Counted from the stretch's first letter, positions 1,857 through 15,698 are shown. The stretch is 32,000 nt of DNA from Luteimonas abyssi (GCF_001482195.1 NZ_KQ759763.1:289023-321022); one strand, 5' to 3'. Numbers and translations: made by a program. Notes: generated by a model from the sequence alone, not told the origin.

Positions 1857-4351
1857 GGACCGTACGCCTCGCCTGGACCCAGTTCGCCCGCGACCTCGCC
1901 GCTGGCGAAGTGCGCATCATGCTGGCCGCGCTGGTGCTGGCGGTGCTGGCGGTGAGCGCGGTGGGTTTCGTGACCGACCGTGCCGAGCGTGCGCTGACGC
2001 AGCAGGCCAATCGTCTGCTCGGCGGCGACGCGGTGCTGCGGTCCGATGCCCCCATCGACGCCGCGGTGACCGCCGCGGCCGATGCCGCCGGCCTGCAGCA
2101 CACCGCGACGGTCGAGCTCGACAGCATGATCCGCGTCGGCGACGACCTGCGCCTGGGCGACCTCAGCGCGCTGGGCGAGGGTTACCCGCTGCGCGGAGCG
2201 TTCCGGATCGCCGAGCGTGGCGACGGCGACGATCGCGAAGCGGACGGCATTCCGGCGCCGGGCACGGTCTGGCTCAGCCGCGCGGGTGCCGACACGCTGG
2301 ATGCACGGGTCGGCGACACCGTGTCGCTGGGCGAAGCGCAGTTGCGCCTGGCGGCCCTGGTCACCCAGGAGCCCGACGCCTCGATCGATTACTTCAATGT
2401 CGCGCCCAAGGTCTTCCTCAACGTCGCGGACCTGGAGGCGACCGGGCTGGTGCAGGAAGGCAGCCGGATCCGCTACCGGCTCGTGGTGGCCGGCGACCAG
2501 GATGCCGTGGAGCGTTTCGCCGGCGGTCTGCGCGACGATCTCGGACGTGGCCAGCGGTTGGAAACCATCCAGGATGCGCGGCCGGAAATCCGCTCGGGTC
2601 TCGATCGCGCCGGGCGTTTCCTGGGCCTGGCGGCGCTGGTCTCGGTGGTGCTGGCGGCGGTCGCGGTGGCGATGGCCGCGCGCCGGCACAGCGAACGCCA
2701 TCTGTCCGGCGTCGCGGTGATGCGCTGCCTCGGCGCGAGCCAGCGCACGCTGGTGGGGATCCACGTGGGCGAGCTGGTGCTGCTTGGCCTCCTCGCCAGC
2801 GCGATCGGCGTGGTGCTGGCGTTCGGCCTGCAGTGGGCGGTCGGCGGCTGGATCGCGCGCACGCTCGAACTGGAACTTCCCGGCGCCGGCTGGCTGCCGG
2901 CGCTCGAAGGCCTCGGCGTGGGCATGGTGGTGCTGCTGGCCTTCGGTGCGCCGCCGGTGCTGGCCCTGCGCCGCGTACCGGCATTGCGGGTGATCCGTCG
3001 CGATCTCGACCCGGTGGAGCCGGCGGCGCTCGCGGTCGCCCTGGCCGGGTTCGTCGGCCTGGGCGCCTTGTTGTGGTGGAAGGCCGGCTCGGCCGATCTC
3101 GCCGGCGCCATGCTCGGCGGCATTCTCGCCACGCTGGCGGTCCTGGCGTCGATCGCCTGGGCGTTGATCGCCCTGGTGCGGCGCTTGCGTGGGCGTCTGC
3201 GCGGCGGCCTGCGCTATGGTCTGGCGAATGTGAGTCGGCGCGCTGGGGCCAGCATCGCGCAGGTCTCGGCGCTCGGGCTCGGCCTGATGGCGTTGCTGCT
3301 GCTGACCTTCGTGCGCACCGATCTGCTCGACCGCTGGCAGCTGCAGCTGGCCGAGAATGCGCCCAATCGTTTCATCGTCAATGTGCAACCGCATCAGCTC
3401 GACCCGGTGCGCGTCTTCATGGACGAACGCGGTCTGGAGGCGCCGGAGCTGTTTCCGATGGTCCGCGCGCGCCTGGCTGCACGCAACGGCGAACCGGTGA
3501 CCGGCGAGACCTATGCCGGCGAGGATGAGCAGACCCGCCGCCGCGCCGAGCGCGAGTTCAACCTGTCGATGTCCGGCGATCTGCGCGACGACAACCGTGT
3601 GGTGGACGGGCAGTTCTGGACCGGCACGCCGGCCACGCCGGAGTTCTCGGTGGAGGAGAACTTCGCCAGCCAGCTCGGCTGGCAGGTCGGCGACCGCATC
3701 GTCTTCGACATCGCCGGCCAGCCCTTGGAGGCGCCGATCACCAGCCTGCGCAGCGTGGATTGGGAAAGCTTCCGGCCGAACTTCTTCGTGCTCGCCTCGC
3801 CCGGCGCGCTGGACGGCTACCCGGCCAGCTACATCACCGCGGTGAGCGTGCCGCCGGAGCAGACCCGCTTCACCGCGGATCTGGTCGGCGCGTTCCCGAA
3901 CCTGTCGGTAGTCGATGTCGACGCGGTGCTGGCGCAGGTCCGCACCACGGCCGATCAGGTGTCGGTGGTGGTGCAGGCGGTGTTCTGGTTCTCGCTGGTC
4001 GCGGGCGTGCTGGTGCTGCTGGCGGCGGTGAGCGCCAGCCAGGACGAACGCCTGCTGGAGGGCGGGGTGATGCGCGTGCTCGGCGGCAGCCGCCGGCAAC
4101 TGCGCATGGCCCAGGCCACCGAATTCGCCGCCATCGGCCTGCTGGCCGGCCTTGTCGCGGCCATCGCCGCCTCGGTGCTGTCGGGCGTCATCGCCACCCG
4201 CGTGTTCGACCTGCCCTGGCAGCCGAACTGGAGCATGGCCGCCTTCGGCGGCGTCTTGGGCATGGCGATGACCCTGCTGGCCGGCATGATCGCCACCCGC
4301 CGCGTGGTGGACGCCCCTCCGGCGTTGACGTTGCGGGAGTTGCAGGGCTAG
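1853..4351 (+). CDS. ybbP: ABC transporter permease, FtsX-like, YbbP family (832 aa)
   Basis: Lies in frame inside ORF 785..4351. The real start is taken as ATG 1853 (MRTVRLAWTQFARDL...) because it overlaps the ybbA stop. Two FtsX-type membrane modules separated by large soluble loops; size and pairing with ybbA match E. coli YbbP. Confidence 0.8.
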   Translation: MRTVRLAWTQFARDLAAGEVRIMLAALVLAVLAVSAVGFVTDRAERALTQQANRLLGGDAVLRSDAPIDAAVTAAADAAGLQHTATVELDSMIRVGDDLRLGDLSALGEGYPLRGAFRIAERGDGDDREADGIPAPGTVWLSRAGADTLDARVGDTVSLGEAQLRLAALVTQEPDASIDYFNVAPKVFLNVADLEATGLVQEGSRIRYRLVVAGDQDAVERFAGGLRDDLGRGQRLETIQDARPEIRSGLDRAGRFLGLAALVSVVLAAVAVAMAARRHSERHLSGVAVMRCLGASQRTLVGIHVGELVLLGLLASAIGVVLAFGLQWAVGGWIARTLELELPGAGWLPALEGLGVGMVVLLAFGAPPVLALRRVPALRVIRRDLDPVEPAALAVALAGFVGLGALLWWKAGSADLAGAMLGGILATLAVLASIAWALIALVRRLRGRLRGGLRYGLANVSRRAGASIAQVSALGLGLMALLLLTFVRTDLLDRWQLQLAENAPNRFIVNVQPHQLDPVRVFMDERGLEAPELFPMVRARLAARNGEPVTGETYAGEDEQTRRRAEREFNLSMSGDLRDDNRVVDGQFWTGTPATPEFSVEENFASQLGWQVGDRIVFDIAGQPLEAPITSLRSVDWESFRPNFFVLASPGALDGYPASYITAVSVPPEQTRFTADLVGAFPNLSVVDVDAVLAQVRTTADQVSVVVQAVFWFSLVAGVLVLLAAVSASQDERLLEGGVMRVLGGSRRQLRMAQATEFAAIGLLAGLVAAIAASVLSGVIATRVFDLPWQPNWSMAAFGGVLGMAMTLLAGMIATRRVVDAPPALTLRELQG

Positions 4352-4750
4352 CCACCTGGTGCGGGACGGACGCCCGCCTGCTGGTCGCCCGCTGTCACGA
4401 TCCCGCCCCTGGGCACCCGGCCTGCCCCGTCGGGCCGCCCCGGCCGTCACGTTCTCCGCGCCTGCGGACAGGGCTGGAGAACGATGGCGGTGGCGTTGCA
4501 GCCCTTCCGCTAGGGTCCGCCCTACTGGTCACCAACACCCTGAATACGGATAGTCCGGGCCATCCGCATGCCGCGCCTGGCTGAACGGGCGAGCCGCATC
4601 CCGGGCCCGGTTATCCTCCGCACATCGCGTCAGCGCCCGGGTCGGGAGTCTGCGCCGAGGGCGCGCTTGGGGGAGCGTTGGAGCTGCAGTTCATCCGGCG
4701 GACGATGAGCGATCGATCGTGCGCGGACCGACACAGGGAGTGGTGGTGCG

Positions 4751-7063
4751 ATGAAGCAGGCGAGTGCGTGGGGCGAGTCGACGTCGGAGATGCTGGCCAA
4801 GGTGGCCCGGCTGGGGCAGGACACGCGTCTGATCCGGGCCAGGGCGCCGGTGGAGGACGGCACCTACGTCATCCATCGGGTGCAGGGCAGCGAGGCGCTG
4901 TCGACGCCCTACCGGTTCACCGTCGACATGCTGTCGCTGGATGGTCTGCTGGAGCTCAAGCAGGTCATCGGGCAGCCGATGTGCGTGATCGCGAAGGTCG
5001 AGGATGTGGGCGATCGCGTGTTTCACGGCTACGTGCGGGAGTTCGCGCGCGTCGGCATGGACGGCGGTCTGGCGCGTTATCGGCTCGAGCTGGCGCCGTG
5101 GTTCAGTTTCCTCGACGTCACCAGCAACTGCCGGGTGTTTCAGGACCTCTCGGTGCCGGACATCGTGGGCGAGGTGTTCGAGGCGTACGCGGACCTTGCG
5201 CAATTCCGCTTCGATATCGACAAGACGCGCTATCCGCCGCTCAAGTACTGCGTGCAGTACAACGAATCCGATCTCGCGTTCGTCTCGCGGCTGCTCGAGG
5301 ACGCCGGCATCCACTACAGTTTCGAGCACACCCAGGACGGGCACACGCTGGTGCTCGCCGACGACAGTACCGATTGCGCGCAGATCGACGGCGACGAGCA
5401 GGTGCTCTATCACGCGACCGACGACGACAACCCGCATTACGGTCTGGAAACCTGGGTCGCGCGCCGCCGCATCGGCTCGACGCTGCAGGCGCTGAAGAGC
5501 TTCGACTTCAAGCAGCCGCGTTCGGCATTGTCGGTCGATCAGCCGCTCGACGTGCCCTGCGGCCGCTTCGCGCGGCTGGAGTCGTACCGCTATGAGGGGG
5601 CCGCGCGTTACGGCGACAGCGATGTCGGCCAGGCGCTGGCGGGGTTGCGTGCCGAGGAGACGGCCTGGCAGACCAAGTTGTTCGAAGGCAGCGGCAACCA
5701 TCGCATGCTGCAGCCGGGGCGCTACTTCCTGCTGCGTGGTCACTACGACCATACCGAGACCGACGAGCAGGCGCGTCGCTTTCTGGTGGTGCGCGCCGAT
5801 TACGACATGCGCAACAACATCAGCGACGGACTGGAGGAGGCGGGCGACGTCGCCTATGCCTGCACCGTCACCTGCCTGCGTCGCAAGGTCCCCTATCGCC
5901 CCGTGCGCGCGACGCCACGTCCGCGCATGCCGGGACCGCAGACCGCGACCGTGGTCGGCCCTCCGCACGAGGACATCCATGCCGATCGCTACGGCCGGGT
6001 GAAGGTGCAATTCCCGTGGGATCGGCTGGGGCAGTTCAGCGAGTCCAGTTCGTGCTGGGTGCGCGTGGCCAGCCCCTGGGCGGGCGCCGACATGGGCGGC
6101 GTATCGGTGCCGCGCGTGGGCCAGGAAGTGGTGGTGGATTTCCTCGATGGCGATCCGGACCGCCCGATCATCGTCGGCCGCGTCTACAACGAGGACAACA
6201 TGCCGCCCTTCGGTCTGGAGGTCAGCGGGATCAAATCCAAGACGGTCAACGGCGAGGGGTTCAACGAGCTGACCATGCACGATTCGCCGGGCAAGCAGAT
6301 GCTCAACATGCATGCCCAGCGCGACATGGCGACGACGGTCCAGAACGACCAGACCGCCACCATCAACAACAACAAGAGCACATCCGTCGCCAGCAACCAC
6401 AGCATGAGCGTGGGCGCGAACCAGAACATCGCGGTCGGCGGCACGCGCGGGATCGAGGTGACCGGCGACGACAGCCTCGGGGTGACCGGCGCGCGCACCA
6501 CCAGCATCGCCGGCACCTGCACCACCACGGTCACCGGTGCGACCACCGAAACCCTGCAGGGCGGACGGACGGTCACGGTGGACGTGGGGCATACCGAAAC
6601 CATCAACGGGCCCTACGAAACCTCGGTGGTCGGCGACTTCACCAGCAACCGCACCGGTACCTGGATCGAGACGGTCACCGGCACCTCGACCCGCAATGTC
6701 ACCGGCCTGGTCAGCGAGACGCTGGACGCCGGGCGTACCACCCAGGTCACCGGGGACGACACGCGCGGCGTCAGCGGAAAGGTCGACGACAACAACCAGG
6801 GCGATCGCACCGTGTCGGTAGGCGGCAAGCTCGAACAGGGCGTCGCCACCACGATGGAGGTCTCGTCGGGCGGCGACATGACGATGGGCTCCGGCGGGAC
6901 GATGGCATTGGGCGCGGCCAGCGAGGTGGCGATCGGTGTAGGCGAGTCGTCGGGGATCTCGATCACCGGCGGCGAGATCGTCATCAGCTCCGGTGGTTCG
7001 ACCATCGTGATCGACGCCAGCGGTGTCACGATCAATGGCGCCAAGATCAATCTGAACGCCTGA
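4751..7063 (+). CDS. vgrG: Type VI secretion system spike protein VgrG (canonical, no C-terminal effector extension)
   Basis: 770 aa. N-terminal gp27-like region (YRFTVDMLS, YRLELAPWFSFL, CVQYNESDLAFVSRLLEDAGIHYSFEH). gp5 OB-fold (DRYGRVKVQFPWDR, WVRVASPWAG, PRVGQEVVVDFLDGDPDRPIIVGRVYNEDNMPPF). This is followed by a Thr/Gly-rich beta-helix ending GVTINGAKINLNA. SD-like GGGAG lies upstream of the ATG. Confidence 0.95.
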   Translation: MKQASAWGESTSEMLAKVARLGQDTRLIRARAPVEDGTYVIHRVQGSEALSTPYRFTVDMLSLDGLLELKQVIGQPMCVIAKVEDVGDRVFHGYVREFARVGMDGGLARYRLELAPWFSFLDVTSNCRVFQDLSVPDIVGEVFEAYADLAQFRFDIDKTRYPPLKYCVQYNESDLAFVSRLLEDAGIHYSFEHTQDGHTLVLADDSTDCAQIDGDEQVLYHATDDDNPHYGLETWVARRRIGSTLQALKSFDFKQPRSALSVDQPLDVPCGRFARLESYRYEGAARYGDSDVGQALAGLRAEETAWQTKLFEGSGNHRMLQPGRYFLLRGHYDHTETDEQARRFLVVRADYDMRNNISDGLEEAGDVAYACTVTCLRRKVPYRPVRATPRPRMPGPQTATVVGPPHEDIHADRYGRVKVQFPWDRLGQFSESSSCWVRVASPWAGADMGGVSVPRVGQEVVVDFLDGDPDRPIIVGRVYNEDNMPPFGLEVSGIKSKTVNGEGFNELTMHDSPGKQMLNMHAQRDMATTVQNDQTATINNNKSTSVASNHSMSVGANQNIAVGGTRGIEVTGDDSLGVTGARTTSIAGTCTTTVTGATTETLQGGRTVTVDVGHTETINGPYETSVVGDFTSNRTGTWIETVTGTSTRNVTGLVSETLDAGRTTQVTGDDTRGVSGKVDDNNQGDRTVSVGGKLEQGVATTMEVSSGGDMTMGSGGTMALGAASEVAIGVGESSGISITGGEIVISSGGSTIVIDASGVTINGAKINLNA

Positions 7064-7082
7064 TCGGCGCGGGAGAGCACGC

Positions 7083-8705
7083 ATGGGTGATCCCGTGAGC
7101 CCGGTCGAGAAGCGGATCGACCTGTTGGCGCGGTTGTGGCTGGAGGTGGCGCAGACCCCGGATCTGCGCGTGGTGGTCTGGCGGATTCCTCCGAACGCCG
7201 ATGCCATGCTGGGCGCGTTCTTCGAAGCGCACCGGCAGGCGGACGAGGCGTTGACGCCCGATCTGTTCGTGACCTTCGATACCGCATTCGACACCGGTTT
7301 CGGCTACAGCCGCGCGCTGATCGACGCGTTGTGGGAGGGCTACGCCAACAGCCGCGAGACATTGATCGACCAGGGGGTCGGCATCGGCTGGCGCGGCGCG
7401 CACGAGACCTGGTCCGACTCGGCCAGCGGCGTCGTGGGCATGTTCGCGTCGTTCGCCGATCACCATCGCGCACGGATGCGGTTCTTCGTGCCGGTATTGA
7501 TGCCGTCGCAGGTCCTGGGGGTGGAAGCGTTCGGGCACTGGATCGATCATGCGGTCGGCGCCATCGCGGACGCGCCGATCCGGCTGGCGCTCGTCGATCA
7601 TGCGGACAATCCGCATTGGGACGCCCTGCAGGCGCGGCATCCGGATCACGTCCGGATCGTGGAGGCGCCGATCGACATGTTCGACATCGCCCGCGAGACC
7701 GCCGCGCAGGCCGGCGGCGCGGGCCCCGCGGTCGCCTACCGGCAGATGTTCACCGACGTGCTGGCGGCCACCGAAAAGGGCTCCGCCGCACAGGCGGCCT
7801 CGCGTGCGGACAGGGCCCTGGCGCTGGCGGCGCGGCAGGGGTGGCACGACCAGCAGGCCGCGCTGAACATGACTGTCGCCGGCGCGCACCTGAAGGAGCG
7901 CGACACCGCCAAGGCGATCGCCCGCTATCGCGCCGCGCGCGAGAACGGCGCGCAGGCGCACGCGGCGGGCAACCCGGCCGGCCTGCACCTGGTGATGCAG
8001 GCCTGGTTCGGTGAAGGCGGTGCGTGGTTCCTGGCCGACCAGCCCGAACGTGCGGCCGAGGCCTATCTGGGCGGTGCGGAGGCCGCGCGCAGCGTGCCCA
8101 ACCCGATGTTCGCCCTGGAAGGGCAACGCATGGCCGGCTTCTGCCTGGCGCGCGCGCGTCAGCACGGGCCGGCGCAGGGACACTACCTGCGCGGTCTCCG
8201 CGACGCTCGCGACATGGCCCCCGACGACCGCCCCATGACCACGTTGCCGTTGCTGCTGCAGGACATGCTGCGGCTGGAGGACGCCTCGCGTACCGGCAGG
8301 CTCGAAGCCGTGGCGGAGGGCTACCAGCGCCGTGTCGCCGACGCACAGGCCGAGGCCGAACGCGACGCCTCGCGTCTCGGCCAGCAGCCGGACCCGAAGG
8401 CGATCCGGCGGATCGAGGCACGGATGGAAGATCGCTTCGGGCAGGCGTTCGATGCATCGCGCCAGGAGCGCGAGCGCCTGATCGCCGGTGGCAACGAAAT
8501 GTTCCGCAAGATCGTATCCGTCGGGCGCGACTATCTGCACGACGGCTGGAACGGGCTGCCCGACATCAAGCATCCGCTCGATGCCGAGCCGGCCACCTGG
8601 GAGGCATTGCCGGAGTACGCGCAGTTGCCGGATGCGGCCTCCCTCGAAGACGACGGCGCCGGGACGGCCGCCGCGGAGCCCATCGCCATGGAGAAGACGG
8701 CATGA
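7083..8705 (+). CDS. Uncharacterised 540-aa soluble protein, alpha-helical/TPR-like middle region; candidate T6SS adaptor/chaperone for the downstream Rhs effector
   Basis: Starts 19 nt after the vgrG stop, with SD GGGAGAG 5 nt upstream of the ATG. Its stop overlaps the Rhs start (ATGA at 8702-8705). GC3-rich codon usage in this frame. No signal peptide or TM segment seen. Ala-rich helical repeats at about aa 230-400 and an acidic C-terminal tail. I do not recognise DUF4123, DUF2169 or DUF1795 signatures. Confidence 0.75.
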   Translation: MGDPVSPVEKRIDLLARLWLEVAQTPDLRVVVWRIPPNADAMLGAFFEAHRQADEALTPDLFVTFDTAFDTGFGYSRALIDALWEGYANSRETLIDQGVGIGWRGAHETWSDSASGVVGMFASFADHHRARMRFFVPVLMPSQVLGVEAFGHWIDHAVGAIADAPIRLALVDHADNPHWDALQARHPDHVRIVEAPIDMFDIARETAAQAGGAGPAVAYRQMFTDVLAATEKGSAAQAASRADRALALAARQGWHDQQAALNMTVAGAHLKERDTAKAIARYRAARENGAQAHAAGNPAGLHLVMQAWFGEGGAWFLADQPERAAEAYLGGAEAARSVPNPMFALEGQRMAGFCLARARQHGPAQGHYLRGLRDARDMAPDDRPMTTLPLLLQDMLRLEDASRTGRLEAVAEGYQRRVADAQAEAERDASRLGQQPDPKAIRRIEARMEDRFGQAFDASRQERERLIAGGNEMFRKIVSVGRDYLHDGWNGLPDIKHPLDAEPATWEALPEYAQLPDAASLEDDGAGTAAAEPIAMEKTA

Positions 8706-9080
8706 CGGTCGCCGCCAAGCATTTCGATCCCCAGTTGGGGATCGACATCCACATGTACGTGTTTCCGCCGTTACCGCTGCCGATTCCATTGCCGACGCCA
8801 CACATCGGCATCGTCATGGATCCGTTCGACTACATCCCGGTGATCGGCGCCAAGACCCACGTCAACGGCGTCAAGCGCGCGTCGGCGGCCAGCATGGGGC
8901 TGGACATCCACATCCCGCTGGGCCTCTTCCATCCGGCCTTCGCGCCCAAATTGCCCACGGGGCCGCATTTCGACGACGAGATCTTCATGGGCAGCAAGAC
9001 GGTGGCGGCCGACGGCCTGCCGTTCTCGCGGCTGACGATGCCGGTGCTCAGCTGTCAGGCGTTCGGGATGATCGCCCCCG
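8702..9080 (+). other. PAAR-like domain of the Rhs effector (extended class with Pro-rich loops)
   Basis: AAKHFDP...DIH aligns with AARxGDxxxH. GAKTHVNGVKRASAAS and GSKTVAADGLPFSRLTMPVLSC align with GSxxVxINGxPAARxGDxxxC. The Pro-rich PPLPLPIPLPTPHIG loop resembles extended PAAR proteins as I remember them. Needs HMM confirmation. Confidence 0.65.
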
Positions 9081-12000
9081 TGCGACCGAACAAGCCGAAG
9101 CCGAAGAAGCTGTCGCTGGTGCTGCCGACCACGCTCAACGTGGCGATCCCGAACAATGTCGTCGTCGGCGGGCCACCCACGGTATCGCTGCTCGCGGTGT
9201 TGATGCGGGGAGGATTCGCCCTCCTGGGCAAGCTCAACCGGACGTTCCGGCTCACCCAGCGTGCGGGTGCGGCGTTCCGGCGGTTCCGGCAGCACGCGTT
9301 CCGCAACATGAAGCCGGGCAACCTCAAGTGCAACGTCCTGCGTGCCGAGCCGGTCGATATCCGCGACGGCAGCGTCTCGGTGGTGCACGAGGACTTCGTG
9401 GTGCCCGGACGCCTGCCACTGACGTGGACGCGCGAATACGCTTCGGGCGATCGGTACGAGGGTGCATGCGGGCACGGCTGGCAGAGCCCGGCCGATGTCA
9501 GGCTGGAGTTCGACGCGGCGGATGACGTCGTCTTGCTGCACGGTCTGGGCGGCGTCAGCGTGTTTCCCGAGCGCCCCGGCGCGCCCGAAGACGGCGACGT
9601 GGTCGAGCCCATCGACGGCGCCCGTCTGGAACTCCACCGTGGCGCGGCCGGCGACGAATGGCGGGTGCGGACCAAGGACGGCCTGATCCAGTGCTTCATC
9701 GCGGCGCCGGCCGGTGTCGCCGCCATCGGCCCGCGGGTGCTGCAGATCGCACGCATCGAGGATCGCTGCGGCAATCACTGGCGGTTCGAGCGCAAGGACG
9801 GGCACCTGGTCCGCATCGTCGAAAGCGGTAGCACGGATGCGGACGGCACGCCGTTGCAGGGGCGTTACATCGAGGTGGACGCCCGCCACGGCCGCATCGA
9901 AGGTCTGCGGTTGTTCGATCCGCAGAGCGGTCTGCACCATCCGCTCGTACGCTATCGCTACGACGCCGCGGGCGACCTGGTCGCCGCCATCGACCCGCTC
10001 GGCGCCGAGCGCACGTTCGAGTATGTGCAGCACCGCATGGTCCGGCACACCGACCGCCTGGGGCTGTCCTTCAGCTACGCCTACAACGCGCGTTGGCAGG
10101 TCGTCCACGCCTGGGGCGATCATGGTCTCTACGACTATCGCTTCCGCTACGACGATGTGCTGAACGACGTCGAGATCACCGATTCTCTCGGCCACGTCTC
10201 GATCGTCAAGTTCGACGCGTACCGCCTGCCCCTGTGCGAGATCGATCCGCTCGATGGCGTGACGGTCTTCGAGTACGACGACTACGGGCGAACCACCGCC
10301 ATCGTCGACCCGATGGGCCTGCGCACCGAGTTCGCCTACGATGCGCGTGGCAACCAGACCCGTCTGGTCCAGCCCGACGGCACCGCCGTGGTCAGCGAGT
10401 ACGACGCCGACGACAACCTCGTGACGGTGACCGACCCGGGTGGCCATGCCTGGCGCCAGCACAGCGATGCGCGCGGGCTGTTGCGCGAGCAGGTCGATCC
10501 GCTCGGCGCGACGACGCGCTACGACTACGACGCCCATGGGCAGTTGATCGTGCATGCGAGCGCCCGTGGGGCGATCACCCGGATCCAGTACGACCGGCAC
10601 GGGCAATTGGCGGGTGTGATCGATCCGATGGGCCATTCCAGCCGGTTCGACCACGACGCGCTGGGCCGGCTGCTGCAACAGCATGATCCGCTCGACCAGG
10701 TGACGACCTACAGCTACGACGCCAAGGGCCGGCTGCTGGACGTGCGTTCGCCGGGCGGCGGGCAGGTGCGTTGCGAATACGACGCGGAGGATCAACTGAT
10801 CCGCTATGTGGACGAGGCCGGCGCACAGACCCGGTTGCAGTACGTGGGCATCGGCCAGATCGCCAAGCGGATCCAGCCGGACGGGCATACGGTGGAGTAC
10901 CACTACGACACCGAAGAGCAGCTGGTCGGACTGACCAATCAGCGCGGCGAACGTCACGAACTCAAGCGCGATGCGCTGGGACGCATCGTCGAGGAAGTGG
11001 ACTATTGGGGCCAGGCGCGTCGCTACGAGTACGACGCCGCAGGCCGCTTGCGCGCCACTATCGACCCGCTCGGACAGCGGATCGGCTTCGACACCGATCC
11101 GCTGGGTCGCATCGTCCGCAAGCGGTTACCGGATCTGCGGCAGCCGGGTCGGCAGGTGACCGAGGGCTTCAAGTACGACGCGCTCGGGCAACTGGTCGAA
11201 CTGCGCAATCCCAGCCGGCATGCCGTGCGCCGGTTCGATCCCGCCGGACGCCTGGTCGAAGAGGTTCAGGACGGCTTTGCGGTGACATGCGGGTACGACG
11301 CCGACGGCAACCGCACGCTGCGCGAGACCGGCGCGGGCCATCGGGTCGCGTGCACCTACGACCTGCGCGGGCAGGTGATCGAGATCGGCATCGACGACGA
11401 AGCGCCGATCCGTATCGAGCGGGACGCGCTCGGTCGTGCCACCCACGAACAGCTTGGCGAGCACGTCCAGCGTCGCTTCGACTACGACGCGCGCAACCTG
11501 CTGACCGCGCAGCGCGTCCTGCGCGATGTCGCGCCGCTGTTCGACACCGCCTACGGCTACGACACCGCCGGCAACCTCACCCGGCGCGCCGACAGCCAGC
11601 AGGGCACCGACGAATACCGCTACGACATCCTCGGCCGGCTGCTGCAGCACACCGATCCGAAATCGCGCGTGGAACGCTTCTTCAACGATCCGGCCGGCGA
11701 CCGCCTGCAGACCCGAATCCACGAGGTGAAGCTGCGCAAGGTGGTGGGCGGCGAGGACGAGGATCAGGTCCAGTGGACGCGCGAGGGCACCTACGAGGGC
11801 GTGCATTACGTGTTCGACCGCGCCGGCGACCTGATCCGCAAGGGCCGCCCCGGCGGCCCGGATGCCGGCGATCTGGACCTGGTCTGGGACGCCAACCATC
11901 GCCTGGCCGAGAGTCGCCGCGGCGGCCAGACCACCACCTACGGTTACGACCCGCTGGGCCGGCGCGTGTTCAAGCGCAATCCCACCCACACCACGTGGTT

Positions 12001-13393
12001 CTACTGGGACGGCGACGCCCTGCTGGGCGAAGTGAAGCAGGCCAACGACGACCCCGAGGCCGCGCCGCTGTGGGTCGGCAACGTGGCCGATCTGGCGGGG
12101 GCTCGCAAGCGGCGGGACCGGTTGAAGGCGTTGCATGCGCGCACGCGGGAGTACGTGTACTACCCGGGGACCTTCGTGCCGTTGGCGTTGATCGATCCCC
12201 CTGTCGCCATGGGCACGTCGAGTCAGAACATCGCCGTAGATGATGCGCAGAAGCCGCATTCGGGCCCCGTCGGATCGGCGTCCTCGCGGGACCTGCCTGG
12301 AGCGGCGCCGCAAGCCACGGCTGGACGGGGCGTGCCAGCCGATCCCGGCACCTCCGGGCTGGGCCTGCCGGGGGGACTGCACCTGCGGGCATCCGCACAG
12401 CACGTCGCCCTAGGGGATCGCCCAGCGTCGGGCCTTGTCCTGGGCGGGGCGGGGGCGGTGTTGGGGGCGGGCCGCGTGTTGGACGGGGGACGTGGGAAAG
12501 AGACCGTGCTGGGCGGCGATGTCGCTCCCGGGGCCGGCATCCCACGGCCTGGGAACGGCGGTCGCGAGGTCGAGGCGGTGGCGGGTCCTGCGGGTCGGCG
12601 CAAGGACGTTCCGGCGCTCCCCCGTCCGCGGCCGGGCGCAACCGAAGACGCCCAGTCGAACACAACGAACCGCGTGTTTCATTTTCATGTGGATCCCAAT
12701 GGATGCCCTTTCCGATTGAGCGGCTCGTCCGGGCAGATCGTATGGTCGGGCACCTTGACCGCCTGGGGCCTCATGGCCGATGCGGGCGGGAGCAGTATCG
12801 ACAATCCGCTCCGATTCCAGGGGCAGTACTTCGACGAAGAAACGGGACTGTCCTACAACAGATATCGATACTACGACCCCCACACGGGACAGTACGTGGG
12901 ACGCGATCCCATCGGTCTGCTGGGTGGCATGAATCCGTACCAGTACGGTCCCAACGGGCAGCAGTGGATCGACCCGCTCGGTCTGGCCAAGGCGAAGATC
13001 GACCCGGCCACCGGCGTTCACAGGATGCCGCCCTGGATGCCGGGCATGCGTGGCTGGGAGAGGCAACATCTCGTGCCCTTCGCGGTCTGGCGCGACTTCA
13101 TGCCGCAGTTGACGCAACTGGGTCTGACCATGGCGGATGTCAACGGTGCACACAACATGATGTACATGCCGCGATTCGCGTCCGCGAGGCCGGCGCAGTA
13201 TCCCAACATGGGCTTGCATCGCGGCTTCCATCCGATGCATACCGCATACAATCAGCGCGTCGCCCGCGAACTCCGCCAACTCATGGCCGGCCTTCAGGGC
13301 AGGAGCTCCTCCGAGGCGAGGGCGGCATTCAGGCAGTTCCAGTTCAGTCTCAGACAGAGAACCCGGACGGGTCGGGTTACGTGCGCGAGGTAG
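8702..13393 (+). CDS. PAAR-domain Rhs-family polymorphic toxin (T6SS effector), 1563 aa
   Basis: In frame inside ORF 8024..13393. The start is taken at ATG 8702 (SD GGAG 8 nt upstream; overlaps the upstream stop). N-terminal PAAR-like domain. DUF6531-like segment (RAEPVDIRDGSVSVVHEDFVVPGRLPLTWTREYAS...GHGWQSP). Dozens of YD repeats (YDAAGDLVAAIDPLG, YDARGNQTRLVQPDG, YDAHGQL, YDAKGRLL...). Rhs core end motif (NPLRFQGQYFDEETGLSYNRYRYYDPHTGQYVGRDPIGL ... QQWIDPLGL), followed by a 135-aa C-terminal extension. Confidence 0.95.
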   Translation: MTVAAKHFDPQLGIDIHMYVFPPLPLPIPLPTPHIGIVMDPFDYIPVIGAKTHVNGVKRASAASMGLDIHIPLGLFHPAFAPKLPTGPHFDDEIFMGSKTVAADGLPFSRLTMPVLSCQAFGMIAPVRPNKPKPKKLSLVLPTTLNVAIPNNVVVGGPPTVSLLAVLMRGGFALLGKLNRTFRLTQRAGAAFRRFRQHAFRNMKPGNLKCNVLRAEPVDIRDGSVSVVHEDFVVPGRLPLTWTREYASGDRYEGACGHGWQSPADVRLEFDAADDVVLLHGLGGVSVFPERPGAPEDGDVVEPIDGARLELHRGAAGDEWRVRTKDGLIQCFIAAPAGVAAIGPRVLQIARIEDRCGNHWRFERKDGHLVRIVESGSTDADGTPLQGRYIEVDARHGRIEGLRLFDPQSGLHHPLVRYRYDAAGDLVAAIDPLGAERTFEYVQHRMVRHTDRLGLSFSYAYNARWQVVHAWGDHGLYDYRFRYDDVLNDVEITDSLGHVSIVKFDAYRLPLCEIDPLDGVTVFEYDDYGRTTAIVDPMGLRTEFAYDARGNQTRLVQPDGTAVVSEYDADDNLVTVTDPGGHAWRQHSDARGLLREQVDPLGATTRYDYDAHGQLIVHASARGAITRIQYDRHGQLAGVIDPMGHSSRFDHDALGRLLQQHDPLDQVTTYSYDAKGRLLDVRSPGGGQVRCEYDAEDQLIRYVDEAGAQTRLQYVGIGQIAKRIQPDGHTVEYHYDTEEQLVGLTNQRGERHELKRDALGRIVEEVDYWGQARRYEYDAAGRLRATIDPLGQRIGFDTDPLGRIVRKRLPDLRQPGRQVTEGFKYDALGQLVELRNPSRHAVRRFDPAGRLVEEVQDGFAVTCGYDADGNRTLRETGAGHRVACTYDLRGQVIEIGIDDEAPIRIERDALGRATHEQLGEHVQRRFDYDARNLLTAQRVLRDVAPLFDTAYGYDTAGNLTRRADSQQGTDEYRYDILGRLLQHTDPKSRVERFFNDPAGDRLQTRIHEVKLRKVVGGEDEDQVQWTREGTYEGVHYVFDRAGDLIRKGRPGGPDAGDLDLVWDANHRLAESRRGGQTTTYGYDPLGRRVFKRNPTHTTWFYWDGDALLGEVKQANDDPEAAPLWVGNVADLAGARKRRDRLKALHARTREYVYYPGTFVPLALIDPPVAMGTSSQNIAVDDAQKPHSGPVGSASSRDLPGAAPQATAGRGVPADPGTSGLGLPGGLHLRASAQHVALGDRPASGLVLGGAGAVLGAGRVLDGGRGKETVLGGDVAPGAGIPRPGNGGREVEAVAGPAGRRKDVPALPRPRPGATEDAQSNTTNRVFHFHVDPNGCPFRLSGSSGQIVWSGTLTAWGLMADAGGSSIDNPLRFQGQYFDEETGLSYNRYRYYDPHTGQYVGRDPIGLLGGMNPYQYGPNGQQWIDPLGLAKAKIDPATGVHRMPPWMPGMRGWERQHLVPFAVWRDFMPQLTQLGLTMADVNGAHNMMYMPRFASARPAQYPNMGLHRGFHPMHTAYNQRVARELRQLMAGLQGRSSSEARAAFRQFQFSLRQRTRTGRVTCAR
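12197..12673 (+). other. ~159-aa Gly/Ala/Pro-rich low-complexity insertion within the Rhs core domain
   Basis: Lies between the conserved YYPGTFVPLALID and VFHFHVDPNGCPFRLSG...VWSGTLTAWG core elements. In Rhs proteins I know, these are separated by only a short loop. The reading frame stays open throughout. Confidence 0.7.
12986..13390 (+). other. Rhs C-terminal toxin domain, putative HNH/EndoVII-fold nuclease of the AHH-like clade
   Basis: Begins right after DPLGL (nt 12971-12985). Pattern ERQHLVP...DVNGAHNMMYMP...GLHRGFHPMHTAYNQRVARELRQL matches the AHH-family layout (AHH-[LI][IV]P ... N..N...LP ... H.G.H..Y...V). The AHH triad reads RQH here (His1456). Confidence 0.5.
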
Positions 13394-13400
13394 CACATTG

Positions 13401-13937
13401 ATGGCCGAAGGATGTTTCCAACTCTTGAGTCCGAGCCGGTTCGGTGATTTCTCGATCGCAATGCGAGGAGAGGACGAATACGGGACCGGGTACTTCGTCG
13501 ACGGAGTCACCGAGGCGATCGAGATCGCCCGCGTGGATGTCGACGTGGATGTGAGCATCCAGGCCTTCCGCAAGGCTGCGCCGGATTACTTGCAGACGAC
13601 GAAGGGAGTGCCTCTTGTCTCACAGGCGTTCAGAGACGAGGCGCTTGTCCACTTTGCGAACGACATCGACGTCGTCGAGGCGCAGTTGCATCTTAATGGA
13701 GGGACTGTCGATTTCTTCGCGCTGCGGTTGAAGGCATTGGCGCTGATCGACGTCGATAGGTCGCTGTTCTCGGACATCGGTGGTATCCGGATACTGACCG
13801 ATCCCGTGTTCGATCCATCAGTGCCGGACTTCTATCTGGCCCGCGACGAGGCGTTCAGGGACTTCATCGTTGCGTCCGGTGCGCTGGTCGCGCTGATCGT
13901 CGATAAAAAACTGCGAGTGGAGTACATGCAGTATTGA
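13401..13937 (+). CDS. Putative cognate immunity protein for the Rhs C-terminal toxin (178 aa, cytoplasmic, acidic)
   Basis: ATG at 13401, 7 nt after the Rhs stop. The track begins the ORF at TTG 13398 and lists it as 179 aa. GAGG lies 10 nt upstream of the ATG. Same strand as the toxin, no signal peptide or TM segment. Clearly more A/T-ending codons than the flanking genes (gat aaa aaa ctg cga; ctt aat gga). Family not recognised. Confidence 0.6.
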   Translation: MAEGCFQLLSPSRFGDFSIAMRGEDEYGTGYFVDGVTEAIEIARVDVDVDVSIQAFRKAAPDYLQTTKGVPLVSQAFRDEALVHFANDIDVVEAQLHLNGGTVDFFALRLKALALIDVDRSLFSDIGGIRILTDPVFDPSVPDFYLARDEAFRDFIVASGALVALIVDKKLRVEYMQY

Positions 13938-14065
13938 GGCCGTATCGAGGCCGTCGACTGGCACGGGCTGTCATGCATTGAGAGACCGGCGCACCTCCAC
14001 TGTTTTCCGGATCCAAGCGAAGGCAGTCGCCGGCCGCACGCCCACCTGCCCCACTCGTGCTGTAC

Positions 14066-14089
14066 GGAGCGGGTCGGCAGACCCGCTCC
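14066..14089. terminator. 10-bp GC-rich hairpin between convergent genes (possible bidirectional terminator at the island's right boundary)
   Basis: ggagcgggtc-ggca-gacccgctcc. It lies 129 nt after the immunity gene stop and 29 nt after the stop of the minus-strand 86-aa gene. No clear T-tract. Confidence 0.4.
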
Positions 14090-14117
14090 GCCAGTCAGCG
14101 CCCCTCCAGCCGAACGT

Positions 14118-14378
14118 CTAATCGTCGGCGGTACTTTCCTCGGCGTTGAACCGGCGCGCATACGCGCGCTCTTCACTGATGCGAGCGACTTCAGCGTCCG
14201 GCAGTTCCGGCGCACCATAGACGGCGTAGGCGATCTCGCCATCCTGGTGGCCCAGGCGGCGCAGCCGGTAGCGGGTCGCGCCGGAGCCGGTATCGGGCGG
14301 GTAATGGACCGGCGGGGTGTCGCCTTCCAGATCGACCTCGCCATTGTCGACGGGGCCTCCGACGAAGAGTGCGCGCAT
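14118..14378 (-). CDS. Small hypothetical protein (86 aa)
   Basis: C-terminal part of ORF 14118..15242. The rest of that ORF is antisense to the methyltransferase gene, so only MRALFVGGPVDNGEVDLEGD...EESTADD (ATG at 14378) is plausible. GC3-rich. No family recognised. Confidence 0.45.
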   Translation of the reverse strand: MRALFVGGPVDNGEVDLEGDTPPVHYPPDTGSGATRYRLRRLGHQDGEIAYAVYGAPELPDAEVARISEERAYARRFNAEESTADD

Positions 14379-14663
14379 GTGGGATGTCCTGTGCGGAAGA
14401 GATGCTCGCAGGGTGGCGGTCCGGATGTTCGGTGTCGATGAAATCGGCATGAGCGATGCGTACATTGCGCTTGCGGTCACGACCGTAGCGGTGGGGGCGG
14501 TGGCTTGAGCGGCGGGCCGAAGGGGCGGGCAGGACAGCGATCGCGTGGTGGCGACGCGACACGCTGGCGCCTGGATGAACGCACGCGTCGCGACGCCGAC
14601 ATCATTCGGCGCCCGCTGGGCGGGTTCCGTAGAATCCGCAGTCCGCCCGCCTCGTGAACCGCC

Positions 14664-15698
14664 GTGTCCGATCCTGCGCTCGATGCCTTGATGTTGCCCT
14701 TCGCCGAAGCGCGCCTGGCGCGCGTGCCCGGCGCGCTGTTTCTCGGCGCGCGGGCCGGCGTCGCCCTGCATGCATCGCAATGGCCCGGCCTGGTGTGCGT
14801 GCAGGGATTCAGGCCGCAGGCGCAGGCGCTCGAGCGCGACGGGTTCGCTGTGCGCGACGACATCGATGCGTTGGCCGGCGATGCGGGCTGGCCGCTGGTG
14901 CTGGTGGTGCCGCCGCGGCAACGCGAAGCCGCGCGTGCCCTGTATGCGCAGGCGTTGGCCCTGGCGGCGCCGGATGCGATGGTCGTGTCGGCGGTGCCGA
15001 ACGAGGAAGGCGCGAAGTCGGCGGAAGCCGACTTCGTGCGGATCGCGGGTCCTGCTGGGTCGTTGTCGAAGCACAAATGCCGGGTGTTCTGGGCGCGGGC
15101 TGGTGCCGGCGGCGACGCTACGCTCGCCGCCGCCTGGCGCGAGGGCGACGCGATCCGCGAGGTCGCGTCCGGCTGGTGGAGCCGGCCCGGCGTGTTCGCC
15201 TGGGACCGGATCGACATCGCGTCGGCGTTGTTGATCGAGCATCTGCCGGACACGCTCGCCGGCGACGGCGCCGATCTCGGCGCGGGGACCGGCGTGCTGG
15301 CGGCTGCGGTCCTACGGCGCTGCCCCCAGGTCCGTACCCTCGACCTGTACGAGGCCGACGCGCGTGCGCTGGCACTGGCCGGGCGCAACCTCGCGGCCCT
15401 GGGGACGAAGGCGTCCGTAGGGCTGCGCTGGCACGACGTCGGCGGTGGCCTGCCGCGGCGCTACGACTTCATCGTCACCAATCCGCCGTTCCACGCGCAG
15501 GGGCGTGCCTCCCGGCCCGAGCTGGGGCAGGCGTTCCTGCGCACGGCCGCCGCGGCGTTGCGTCCCGGCGGCGCGCTGTGGCTGGTGGCCAATCGGCAGT
15601 TGCCCTACGAACAGACGCTGGGTGAGGGCTTCGCGGAGGTGCGCACGGTGGCGCAACGCGACGGATTCAAGATCATCGCCGCGAGGCGTGCCGCATGA
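14664..15698 (+). CDS. rsmC: Class I SAM-dependent rRNA methyltransferase, RsmC-like (16S rRNA m2G)
   Basis: 344 aa with a GTG start. SAM-binding motif DLGAGTGVLA and catalytic TNPPFH motif. Two-domain size as in E. coli RsmC. TAGAAT -10-like hexamer about 30 nt upstream. Stop overlaps the rsuA start (ATGA). Confidence 0.7.
   Translation: MSDPALDALMLPFAEARLARVPGALFLGARAGVALHASQWPGLVCVQGFRPQAQALERDGFAVRDDIDALAGDAGWPLVLVVPPRQREAARALYAQALALAAPDAMVVSAVPNEEGAKSAEADFVRIAGPAGSLSKHKCRVFWARAGAGGDATLAAAWREGDAIREVASGWWSRPGVFAWDRIDIASALLIEHLPDTLAGDGADLGAGTGVLAAAVLRRCPQVRTLDLYEADARALALAGRNLAALGTKASVGLRWHDVGGGLPRRYDFIVTNPPFHAQGRASRPELGQAFLRTAAAALRPGGALWLVANRQLPYEQTLGEGFAEVRTVAQRDGFKIIAARRAA

Follow-up and report, generated by a model that had tools for sequence, protein, structure and literature searches.

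A 32,000-nt stretch of the Luteimonas abyssi genome (GCF_001482195.1, NZ_KQ759763.1:289023-321022; herein the window) carries at positions 4352 through 14117 a block of four genes that is likely to be an auxiliary effector cassette for a type VI secretion system (T6SS), gained by horizontal transfer and lodged between ybbP, which encodes an FtsX permease, and a small gene followed by an rsmC-like/rsuA operon. The genes encode a VgrG spike, a 540-residue protein that we call the helper, an Rhs protein with a C-terminal toxin, and a 178-residue protein (Table 1). Islands of this kind are well known, and this one is ordinary apart from its accessory gene, the helper, which points to an undescribed and widespread adaptor family.

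An earlier note, made from the sequence of the window alone, described four co-directional genes with gaps of 19, −4, and 7 nt; the genes lie at 4751 through 13937, and the arrangement is exactly reproduced. The negative gap is an ATGA overlap in which the rhs ATG runs into the TGA of the helper gene (GGCATGACGG). A mechanical list of open reading frames (ORFs) lets the rhs frame reach back to 8024; we place the true start at 8702 because all homologs begin at the equivalent position (M..AAKHFDP). Shine-Dalgarno-like GGAG/GAGG sequences lie 7 to 10 nt ahead of the start of each downstream gene. The ~400-bp ORF-free spacer that the note placed before the block measures 399 bp and contains no ORF with a coding-like GC content at third codon positions (GC3), and the hairpin placed after the block has a perfect 10-bp stem. 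The housekeeping flanks are likewise as described, with a GDSL lipase, an ABC ATPase, and the FtsX permease upstream and an MTS methyltransferase and a pseudouridine synthase downstream. A convergent 86-aa gene at the right border was absent from that map; the other genes of the window have ordinary metabolic and transport functions. The note's observation is thus confirmed, and its interpretation of the block as an auxiliary T6SS effector module is supported.

The helper gene is inherited together with its VgrG and with one design of Rhs N terminus. Among VgrG orthologue loci taken from a species-representative genome collection, it directly follows vgrG in 15 of 15 orthologues of at least 53% identity (Vulcaniibacterium, Montanilutibacter, Lysobacter, [Pseudomonas] boreopolis, Xanthomonas maliensis, and eight Stenotrophomonas genomes). 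An Rhs gene with the same N-domain then follows in all 14 loci that are long enough, the other locus (L008) ending at a contig end. The order vgrG-helper-Rhs recurs in Collimonas, where it lies inside a core T6SS cluster, in Xanthomonas oryzae pv. oryzicola, and in Pantoea; all 19 long-form cassettes, which come from 18 loci, have the helper in this middle position (a contig end truncates one of them), and none of the 15 VgrG loci at 36% identity or less has it. On one contig (L014) two cassettes stand in tandem, and the VgrG, helper, and Rhs of one have diverged from those of the other.

The toxin ends follow a different pattern. All 17 sister Rhs proteins have different tips and diverge directly after DPxGL, and neither the toxin nor the immunity protein of the window has a match in any sister locus. 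Because toxins and immunity proteins vary, and because a Ralstonia Rhs protein with a homologous toxin has no helper gene (see below), the helper is part of the delivery chassis rather than of the toxin. A role for the helper as an immunity protein was considered and excluded, as the helper tracks the chassis.

The family reaches well beyond these genomes. A profile search returned 1083 helper clusters (50% identity level), of which 405 reach E = 1e-30 or better, with members in Yersinia pestis/pseudotuberculosis, X. oryzae, the Stenotrophomonas maltophilia complex, Pantoea, Collimonas, and Bacteroidota. Many clusters are ~430 aa long and lack a C-terminal hairpin. Three such short forms were inspected: in Y. 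pseudotuberculosis (L039; 439 aa, in a cluster that also holds Y. pestis proteins) and on a metagenome contig (L122) the gene is flanked by vgrG and a DUF6531 Rhs gene, and in a member of the Saprospiraceae (Bacteroidota; L121) it is directly 5′ of an Rhs gene, beside a T6SS core cluster. Counting all short-form loci, the gene stands immediately ahead of a DUF6531 Rhs in four. One organism (three contigs, two samples) has the helper joined to the PAAR-like domain and Rhs in one protein of 1812 aa (P0330). The helper is a distinct family with strict linkage to the chassis and a natural fusion to it. No description of a tetratricopeptide-repeat (TPR) helper between vgrG and Rhs was found in the full-text literature searched; coverage of that literature is incomplete, and this is absence of evidence only.

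The helper has no Pfam or NCBIfam match (for Pfam, even at E = 10), and sequence searches of the Protein Data Bank (PDB) with profiles of the whole protein and of its N-domain returned nothing meaningful. An AlphaFold2 model (predicted local distance difference test score, pLDDT, 88.8) comprises an α/β domain (residues 1 through 210), TPR-like repeats (215 through 400), a long helical hairpin (401 through 484), and a short tail with a conserved W-NGLP-HPLD motif. With this model Foldseek retrieved nothing but generic TPR proteins, Rap and LGN among them (TM-score ~0.3), and TPR matches among the relatives are subthreshold only. Conservation falls mainly on Trp, Phe, Leu, Pro, and Arg and outlines no enzyme-like set, which makes an enzyme unlikely. 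The N terminus (MGDPVSPVEKRIDLLARLW), read from the sequence, is not hydrophobic and has no signal peptide.

From this context we infer that the helper is a cytoplasmic adaptor or chaperone that loads the PAAR-like Rhs protein onto its cognate VgrG; its binding, its requirement for secretion, and its own export or retention are inferred in the same manner. The most serious alternative for this gene is that its product is itself a second secreted cargo, or coeffector, carried on the same VgrG, with TPR repeats that bind a target-cell protein. A review of orphan VgrGs lists TPR-repeat proteins beside those of Lysobacter and Dyella among effectors predicted by Bastion6 (PMC6653060), and in P0330 the helper module is N-terminal to the PAAR-like domain, which would put it on the spike tip, from where it could be exported. 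Against this, the helper lacks both an immunity gene of its own and conserved residues of an enzymatic kind; it is kept at 45 to 58% identity across genera, whereas the real toxins of the same loci are completely replaced; and it is always placed between spike and Rhs, as known adaptors are. We regard the cargo explanation as improbable.

Between helper and Rhs, nearly all Xanthomonadales and Pantoea cassettes have a 42-aa ORF (Table 1) that encodes one strongly hydrophobic helix (hydropathy 2.8) with a conserved C terminus, EYRDEVKAFLRALxRAL; it could be a fifth component of the cassette. A search of all six frames of the window (including 8690 through 8720) found no such ORF, and it is at this junction that helper and rhs overlap. 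Some cassettes also carry a second Rhs copy downstream of the first toxin-immunity pair (L003:17793-21620, L007:20862-22256, and L009:19331-22261). Ahead of the second X. oryzae pv. oryzicola copy lie a 58-residue remnant of a helper C terminus and a further 42-aa ORF, an arrangement that looks like a recombination scar left by cassette duplication.

The first gene of the block, called vgrG from the outset, encodes a VgrG/TssI protein by domain content and score: it has a gp27-like hub, a gp5 oligonucleotide/oligosaccharide-binding (OB) fold, and a β-helix, with Pfam domains Phage_GPD, Phage_base_V, and Gp5_trimer_C, and it passes the NCBIfam thresholds for TIGR03361 (560 bits; cut-off 186) and TIGR01646. 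Its best 120 relatives contain a discrete clade at 46% identity or more, after which identity drops to 41% or less. One close relative, P0145 (55% identical; 98 member sequences), bears the NCBI label “Bacillus subtilis subsp. subtilis”; Bacillus is not known to have a T6SS, and the assembly is therefore almost certainly contaminated or mislabeled. Alignments to helper-linked VgrGs extend to about residue 770, and those to helper-less VgrGs mostly stop at about 600 to 630, with partial exceptions in L025 (678) and L032 (746). These end points indicate that the C-terminal β-helix (approximately residues 630 through 770) is largely specific to the helper-linked clade, in agreement with the rule that the VgrG C terminus sets effector specificity (Bondage et al. 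2016, cited in PMC6653060).

The Rhs protein was described in the earlier note as PAAR-Rhs; the Rhs part stands, and the PAAR part is weakly supported. The first 170 residues are strongly conserved across all cassette Rhs proteins and contain the motifs AAKHFDPQLGIDIH, VNGVKRASA, and FMGSKTVAADGLPFSR...C. No Pfam PAAR or DUF4150 match was obtained in this domain even at E = 10. A profile of it against the PDB gave three matches, namely the classic PAAR structures 4jiv_D (E = 1.4e-3) and 4jiw_D (E = 0.039) and one chance PDZ domain. The alignment to the PAAR structures rests on one motif (FMGSKTVxADGxPFSR...C against GSxTVxIDGxPAAR...C), which hhalign also picked out against a three-sequence PAAR alignment, with a probability of only 1.6%. 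Relatives begin MMPAAKHGDP...H, similar to the first PAAR motif. The AlphaFold2 model of the N-domain is unusable (pLDDT 36). Two published proteins were set beside the domain by description only: Yersinia YPO3615, in which the Conserved Domain Database (CDD) finds PAAR_RHS (cd14742) (PMC13515810), and a PAAR/Rhs MafB19-deaminase of X. oryzae pv. oryzicola (PMC6653060). We therefore describe the N-domain as a possible, divergent PAAR-like tip. An effector of the prePAAR/Eag type was rejected, as there is no transmembrane (TM) segment and the His of AAKHFDPQLGIDIH is displaced by four residues relative to AARxxDxxxH. The highest 19-residue Kyte-Doolittle score is 1.49 in the Rhs N terminus of the window and 1.0 to 1.7 in relatives, and the hydropathy is not conserved; Eag-style shielding by the helper of a TM helix after the PAAR-like domain was rejected on these values.

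The protein continues as an Rhs body. A DUF6531 N-terminal plug occupies residues 216 through 281 (PF20148, 58 bits; cut-off 24), Pfam RHS_repeat matches eight stretches (2e-75), the YD repeats appear in the DNA as a 63/126-nt periodicity, and an RHS-associated core spans residues 1353 through 1428 (TIGR03696, 82 bits; cut-off 32.5). The aspartyl-protease motif DPIG-x18-DPLG (DPIGLLGGMNPYQYGPNGQQWIDPLG; residues 1402 through 1427, nt 12905 through 12982) is intact; the role of the plug and the definition of the DPxGx18DPxG self-cleavage motif come from work on Tse5 (PMC10684867). The shell also contains a Gly/Ala/Pro-rich, apparently disordered insert (residues ~1183 through 1320, nt 12248 through 12660) between YVYYPGTFVPLALI and VFHFHVDPNG. 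An insert at this point is present in most sister Rhs proteins and is hypervariable in length (0 to ~190 residues) and sequence; Pantoea (L004) and the second cassette of L014 have none.

The toxin tip, left unassigned in the earlier note, matches the AHH family (PF14412) with 31.6 bits for the tip alone and 26.7 bits within the full protein (cut-off 22.3). Residues H1456, N1485, and H1506 are invariant in the alignment and are candidate catalytic residues; nuclease activity of the tip is plausible. As in other AHH toxins, which are HNH/EndoVII polymorphic toxins, the score lies above the curated threshold, and the His, Asn, and His align with those of a Bacteroides protein annotated as AHH and of Stenotrophomonas Rhs tips in which the AHH motif is genuine; the tip differs from them at the AHH motif itself (see below) and in having an immunity partner outside the catalogued Imm families.

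That partner is the 178-aa protein, which has no Pfam or NCBIfam match and is predicted to be cytoplasmic, without a signal peptide. Using tblastn against plasmid and megaplasmid records, we found homologs of the tip at the C terminus of a Ralstonia solanacearum Rhs protein (38% identity) and in a Bacteroides protein named “AHH domain-containing” in RefSeq. In both cases the next gene encodes a homolog of the 178-aa protein (31% identity, E = 6e-15, and 27% identity, E = 2e-6, respectively). That the two genes remain neighbors in different phyla is good evidence that they are toxin and immunity partners, and it bears out the earlier note, which had taken the small downstream gene for the immunity gene. 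The Ralstonia Rhs has a prePAAR-TMD-PAAR N terminus. It is encoded on megaplasmid NZ_CP051176.1 (L036: Rhs 5140-9399, immunity 9411-9959), and homologs of the immunity gene occur after another Rhs in eight other Ralstonia megaplasmids (L038:5836-6393), possibly as orphan immunity genes; the Ralstonia stretches have no annotation in the PLSDB records.

The cassette is an insertion at a variable junction, with edges at 4351/14118. We compared the interval between ybbP and rsmC in relatives, as the earlier note had proposed for its island, by scanning metagenome contigs with the FtsX permease (80 relatives, 56 to 77% identity). The MTS and pseudouridine-synthase genes are within reach in ~48 of the 80. 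In ~22 of these ~48 the gap between FtsX and MTS is 54 to 640 bp, typically ~450 bp with only a homolog of the 86-aa gene inside; the others have unrelated inserts of 0.8 to 6.2 kb. In L. abyssi the gap is 10.3 kb (4351 to 14664). None of the 80 metagenomic relatives has vgrG, helper, or Rhs between FtsX and MTS. The short or unrelated gaps identify the junction as a variable hotspot and the cassette as one of its occupants. Sister cassettes sampled in other genera share neither the flanks of the window nor one another's visible neighbors.

The other inserts include RtcB-like ligase pairs, a sulfate permease with a stress protein, sigma/anti-sigma pairs, and a response regulator (variable-junction loci L045, L048, L049, L054, L059, L060, L066, L072, L075, L083, L086, L090, L092, and L098). 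About half of the relatives, which are Lysobacteraceae-like genomes, carry inserts downstream of the ybbP-like FtsX permease, and no obvious mobility genes were seen in them. The 86-aa gene, which matches no Pfam family, lies outside the island; its homologs in cassette-less relatives (50 to 69% identity) sit either between FtsX and MTS or beside the GDSL lipase, so that it appears as a small conserved gene changing place around the same operon. In Serratia oryzae and Serratia sp. Ag1 (L024:5364-11620 and L028:5384-11545) the GDSL lipase/ABC/FtsX trio lies ~1 kb upstream of vgrG, with tssM another ~10 kb on. T6SS genes thus occupy the junction downstream of ybbP in a distant genus too, which may be coincidence or may mark a favored site.

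Base composition divides the island in two. GC3 is host-like, at 0.88 to 0.90, in vgrG, the helper gene, and the Rhs N-domain, and falls at the 3′ end to 0.77 in the last part of the Rhs core, 0.82 in the toxin, and 0.74 in the immunity gene, whose GC content (0.577) is the lowest of the island. The chassis, made up of VgrG, the helper, and the N-domain and shell of Rhs, is old and shares the codon usage of the host; what follows, from the end of the Rhs core through the toxin tip to the immunity gene, looks to have arrived later by C-terminal displacement, and the drop in GC3 fits classical replacement of Rhs tips by that route.

The spacer ahead of vgrG has a GC3 of 0.73, against ~0.89 in the genes. 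Its + strand (4352 through 4750) holds no sigma-70-like site. A sigma-54-like match at 4485 through 4500 (two mismatches) was rejected as a promoter because such matches are no more frequent than chance (7 found, 13.5 expected), and Rfam had no match in the spacer or at the island borders. The hairpin downstream of the immunity gene, between it and the convergent 86-aa gene, occurs once in the window (0 expected in shuffles) and is present in both the minimum-free-energy and the centroid folds. It has no T-run and was for that reason not called by the terminator scan, which found no intrinsic terminator 3′ of the immunity gene; it is possibly a bidirectional terminator or an RNA-stabilizing stem.

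Table 1. Features of the cassette, its borders, and the related 42-aa ORF (window coordinates unless a locus, designated L, is given)
Feature	Position	Strand	Description
Upstream spacer	4352-4750	.	399 bp from FtsX-permease stop to vgrG start; left insertion edge, presumed promoter region
vgrG	4751-7063	+	770 aa, T6SS spike protein
Middle gene (helper)	7083-8705	+	540 aa, candidate Rhs-loading adaptor/chaperone
rhs	8702-13393	+	1563 aa
Rhs N-domain	8702-9211	+	Residues 1-170, putative divergent PAAR-like tip with large insertions
Rhs body	9347-12985	+	DUF6531 plug, YD shell, hypervariable insert, RHS-associated core, aspartyl-protease motif
C-terminal toxin	12986-13393	+	Residues 1429-1563, AHH-family HNH/EndoVII-fold nuclease domain
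Immunity gene	13401-13937	+	178 aa
Hairpin	14066-14089	.	GGAGCGGGTC-GGCA-GACCCGCTCC; GC-rich, perfect 10-bp stem extendable to 11, GGCA loop
86-aa flank gene	14118-14378	-	Marks right border, outside island; begins MRALFVGGPVDNGEVDLEGD...
42-aa ORF in other cassettes	L003:11617-11745, L004:11548-11676, L006:13973-14101, L007:13974-14102		
42-aa ORF in other cassettes	L009:13895-14023, L010:13845-13973, L014:13820-13948; Stenotrophomonas L011-L019 near 13850-13980		

Taken together, these features suggest how the cassette would work. The four genes are probably carried on one transcript, to judge from the tight gaps, the ATGA overlap, and the separate ribosome-binding sites. VgrG would trimerize into a spike whose clade-specific C-terminal β-helix offers a docking surface, and the PAAR-like Rhs N-domain would cap that spike. 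The helper, acting in the cytoplasm as a dedicated adaptor or chaperone, would stabilize the N-terminal region of Rhs, bridge it to its own VgrG, or both; we propose this step because of the strict coinheritance and the natural fusion. The Rhs shell would enclose the C-terminal toxin, to be released by a cut at DPIG-x18-DPLG. Once fired by a T6SS assumed to be encoded elsewhere, the ~135-residue AHH-family nuclease would degrade nucleic acid of the target cell, while the 178-aa protein would bind and neutralize the toxin in the producer and its kin.

Several observations weigh against this scheme. As the earlier note had stated, domain and tRNA scans covering all sizeable ORFs of the window found no T6SS core gene, so that delivery is assumed, and no tRNA, integrase, or transposase; nor does a pair of direct or inverted repeats span the island borders. 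No promoter or terminator consensus supports a single operon. The PAAR call depends on marginal scores and on CDD labels of Rhs proteins that were likened by description only, and the role of the helper on gene context, where a TPR protein beside vgrG could be secreted cargo. The 42-aa membrane ORF is missing in L. abyssi, as it is in Collimonas, so that the L. abyssi cassette is a reduced version. Finally, the AHH motif of the toxin reads R-Q-H (residues 1454 through 1456): the first His is a Gln, and only the second is kept. The site varies elsewhere too, reading QRQH in the Ralstonia homolog, RHH in that of Bacteroides, and AHH in the Rhs tips of Stenotrophomonas. In colicin E7 the metal is bound by the first His of the HH pair, and the second serves as general base; by analogy, the tip in the window would keep the base and have one metal ligand changed.

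The first of these points also underlies the idea that the island is a stranded remnant: L. abyssi would lack a functional T6SS, and the genes would either persist only as an addiction-like toxin-immunity pair or be decaying. Thirty-two kilobases free of core genes are in keeping with it, as are the lack of any L. abyssi VgrG paralogue among the best 120 VgrG relatives and the loss of the 42-aa ORF that most relatives keep. Against it stand four intact ORFs, a chassis at host-like GC3 (0.88 to 0.90), and an intact self-cleavage motif and catalytic H/N/H set. As to the secretion machinery, the L. abyssi genome paper reports six types of secretion system (PMC4687298), which is weak evidence; its supplements contain nothing on T6SS. 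Orphan vgrG islands in Xanthomonadales accompany group-4 T6SS clusters (PMC6653060). We consider a remnant quite unlikely. It is very improbable that the helper is instead a T6SS assembly or localization factor of the TslA type, or a regulator, with no special tie to Rhs: TslA is also a TPR protein, encoded in ~80% of i4b clusters (cited in PMC10434147), the helper has TPR-like repeats, and the Collimonas cassette lies inside a core cluster, but TslA is described there as periplasmic and encoded upstream of tssBC, whereas the helper, compared with it by description, has no signal peptide, travels with orphan vgrG-Rhs islands far from core genes, and is duplicated with its own VgrG and Rhs (L014) or fused to Rhs (P0330).

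An auxiliary effector cassette with a dedicated loading protein has close parallels among known systems. The vgrG-eagR-rhs-rhsI modules (Serratia Rhs1/Rhs2, Enterobacter RhsA, and Pseudomonas protegens RhsA) have the same order of spike, accessory protein, PAAR-type (here putatively so) Rhs with a polymorphic C-terminal toxin, and immunity; there too the accessory gene goes with the conserved N-terminal part used in delivery, whatever the toxin, and the Rhs has the DUF6531 plug and the DPxGx18DPxG motif. They differ in that their accessory protein is a DUF1795 Eag chaperone of ~150 aa, paired with prePAAR-TMD-PAAR effectors, against the 540-aa α/β plus TPR protein here, and in that the Rhs N terminus here lacks a TM segment and reads AAKxxDxxxGxDxH in place of the prePAAR AARxxDxxxH. 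Tse5 (RhsP1) of Pseudomonas aeruginosa, solved by cryo-electron microscopy (PMC10684867), shares the Rhs cocoon, the plug, the C-terminal aspartyl-protease self-cleavage, and a short PAAR-like N-terminal fragment, which in Tse5 is needed for secretion; its fragment is only 5 kDa and its toxin forms pores, in contrast to the ~170-residue N-domain with insertions, the nuclease, and the upstream TPR partner found here.

In proposed role, the helper resembles the DUF4123 (Tap-1/Tec/VasW) and DUF2169 adaptors, which are encoded between or beside vgrG and the effector, are nontoxic, and are required for a cognate effector to be loaded onto a cognate VgrG. It has no sequence relationship to either, and they serve mainly non-Rhs or DUF4150 PAAR-like effectors, whereas the helper family precedes a DUF6531 Rhs in every locus inspected. 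The Y. pseudotuberculosis locus (L039) repeats the arrangement with vgrG, a 439-aa helper relative, an Rhs with similar N-terminal motifs, an immunity gene, and an array of orphan toxin tips; its helper lacks the C-terminal helical hairpin and tail (it covers profile positions ~1 through 400), and its Rhs N-domain has a ~100-residue insertion. Y. pestis YPO3615, for which CDD gives PAAR_RHS plus DUF6531, was likened to this Rhs by description only; the study concerned characterizes the toxin tips, and the TPR gene goes unmentioned there (PMC13515810).

A broader proposal, which we make tentatively and which goes well beyond the L. abyssi locus, is that the helper represents a large effector-loading family outside Pfam and NCBIfam, built of an α/β domain and TPR repeats, dedicated to Rhs proteins with a divergent PAAR-like N terminus in Proteobacteria and Bacteroidota, forming a fourth class beside DUF4123, DUF1795, and DUF2169, and working in most lineages with the conserved 42-aa membrane peptide, lost in L. 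abyssi.

As orphan vgrG-Rhs islands are found in textbooks, the present one adds an example, with a clean empty-site comparison. It also illustrates the modularity of effectors, as one nuclease-immunity pair is found on two delivery designs, in Luteimonas and in Ralstonia. The rules by which Rhs proteins are loaded are known only for the Eag/prePAAR class. If the proposal is true, the helper would be a second, unrelated loading route, tied to a different design of Rhs N terminus and present in plant and human pathogens, and its family would serve as a new genomic marker for T6SS Rhs effectors.

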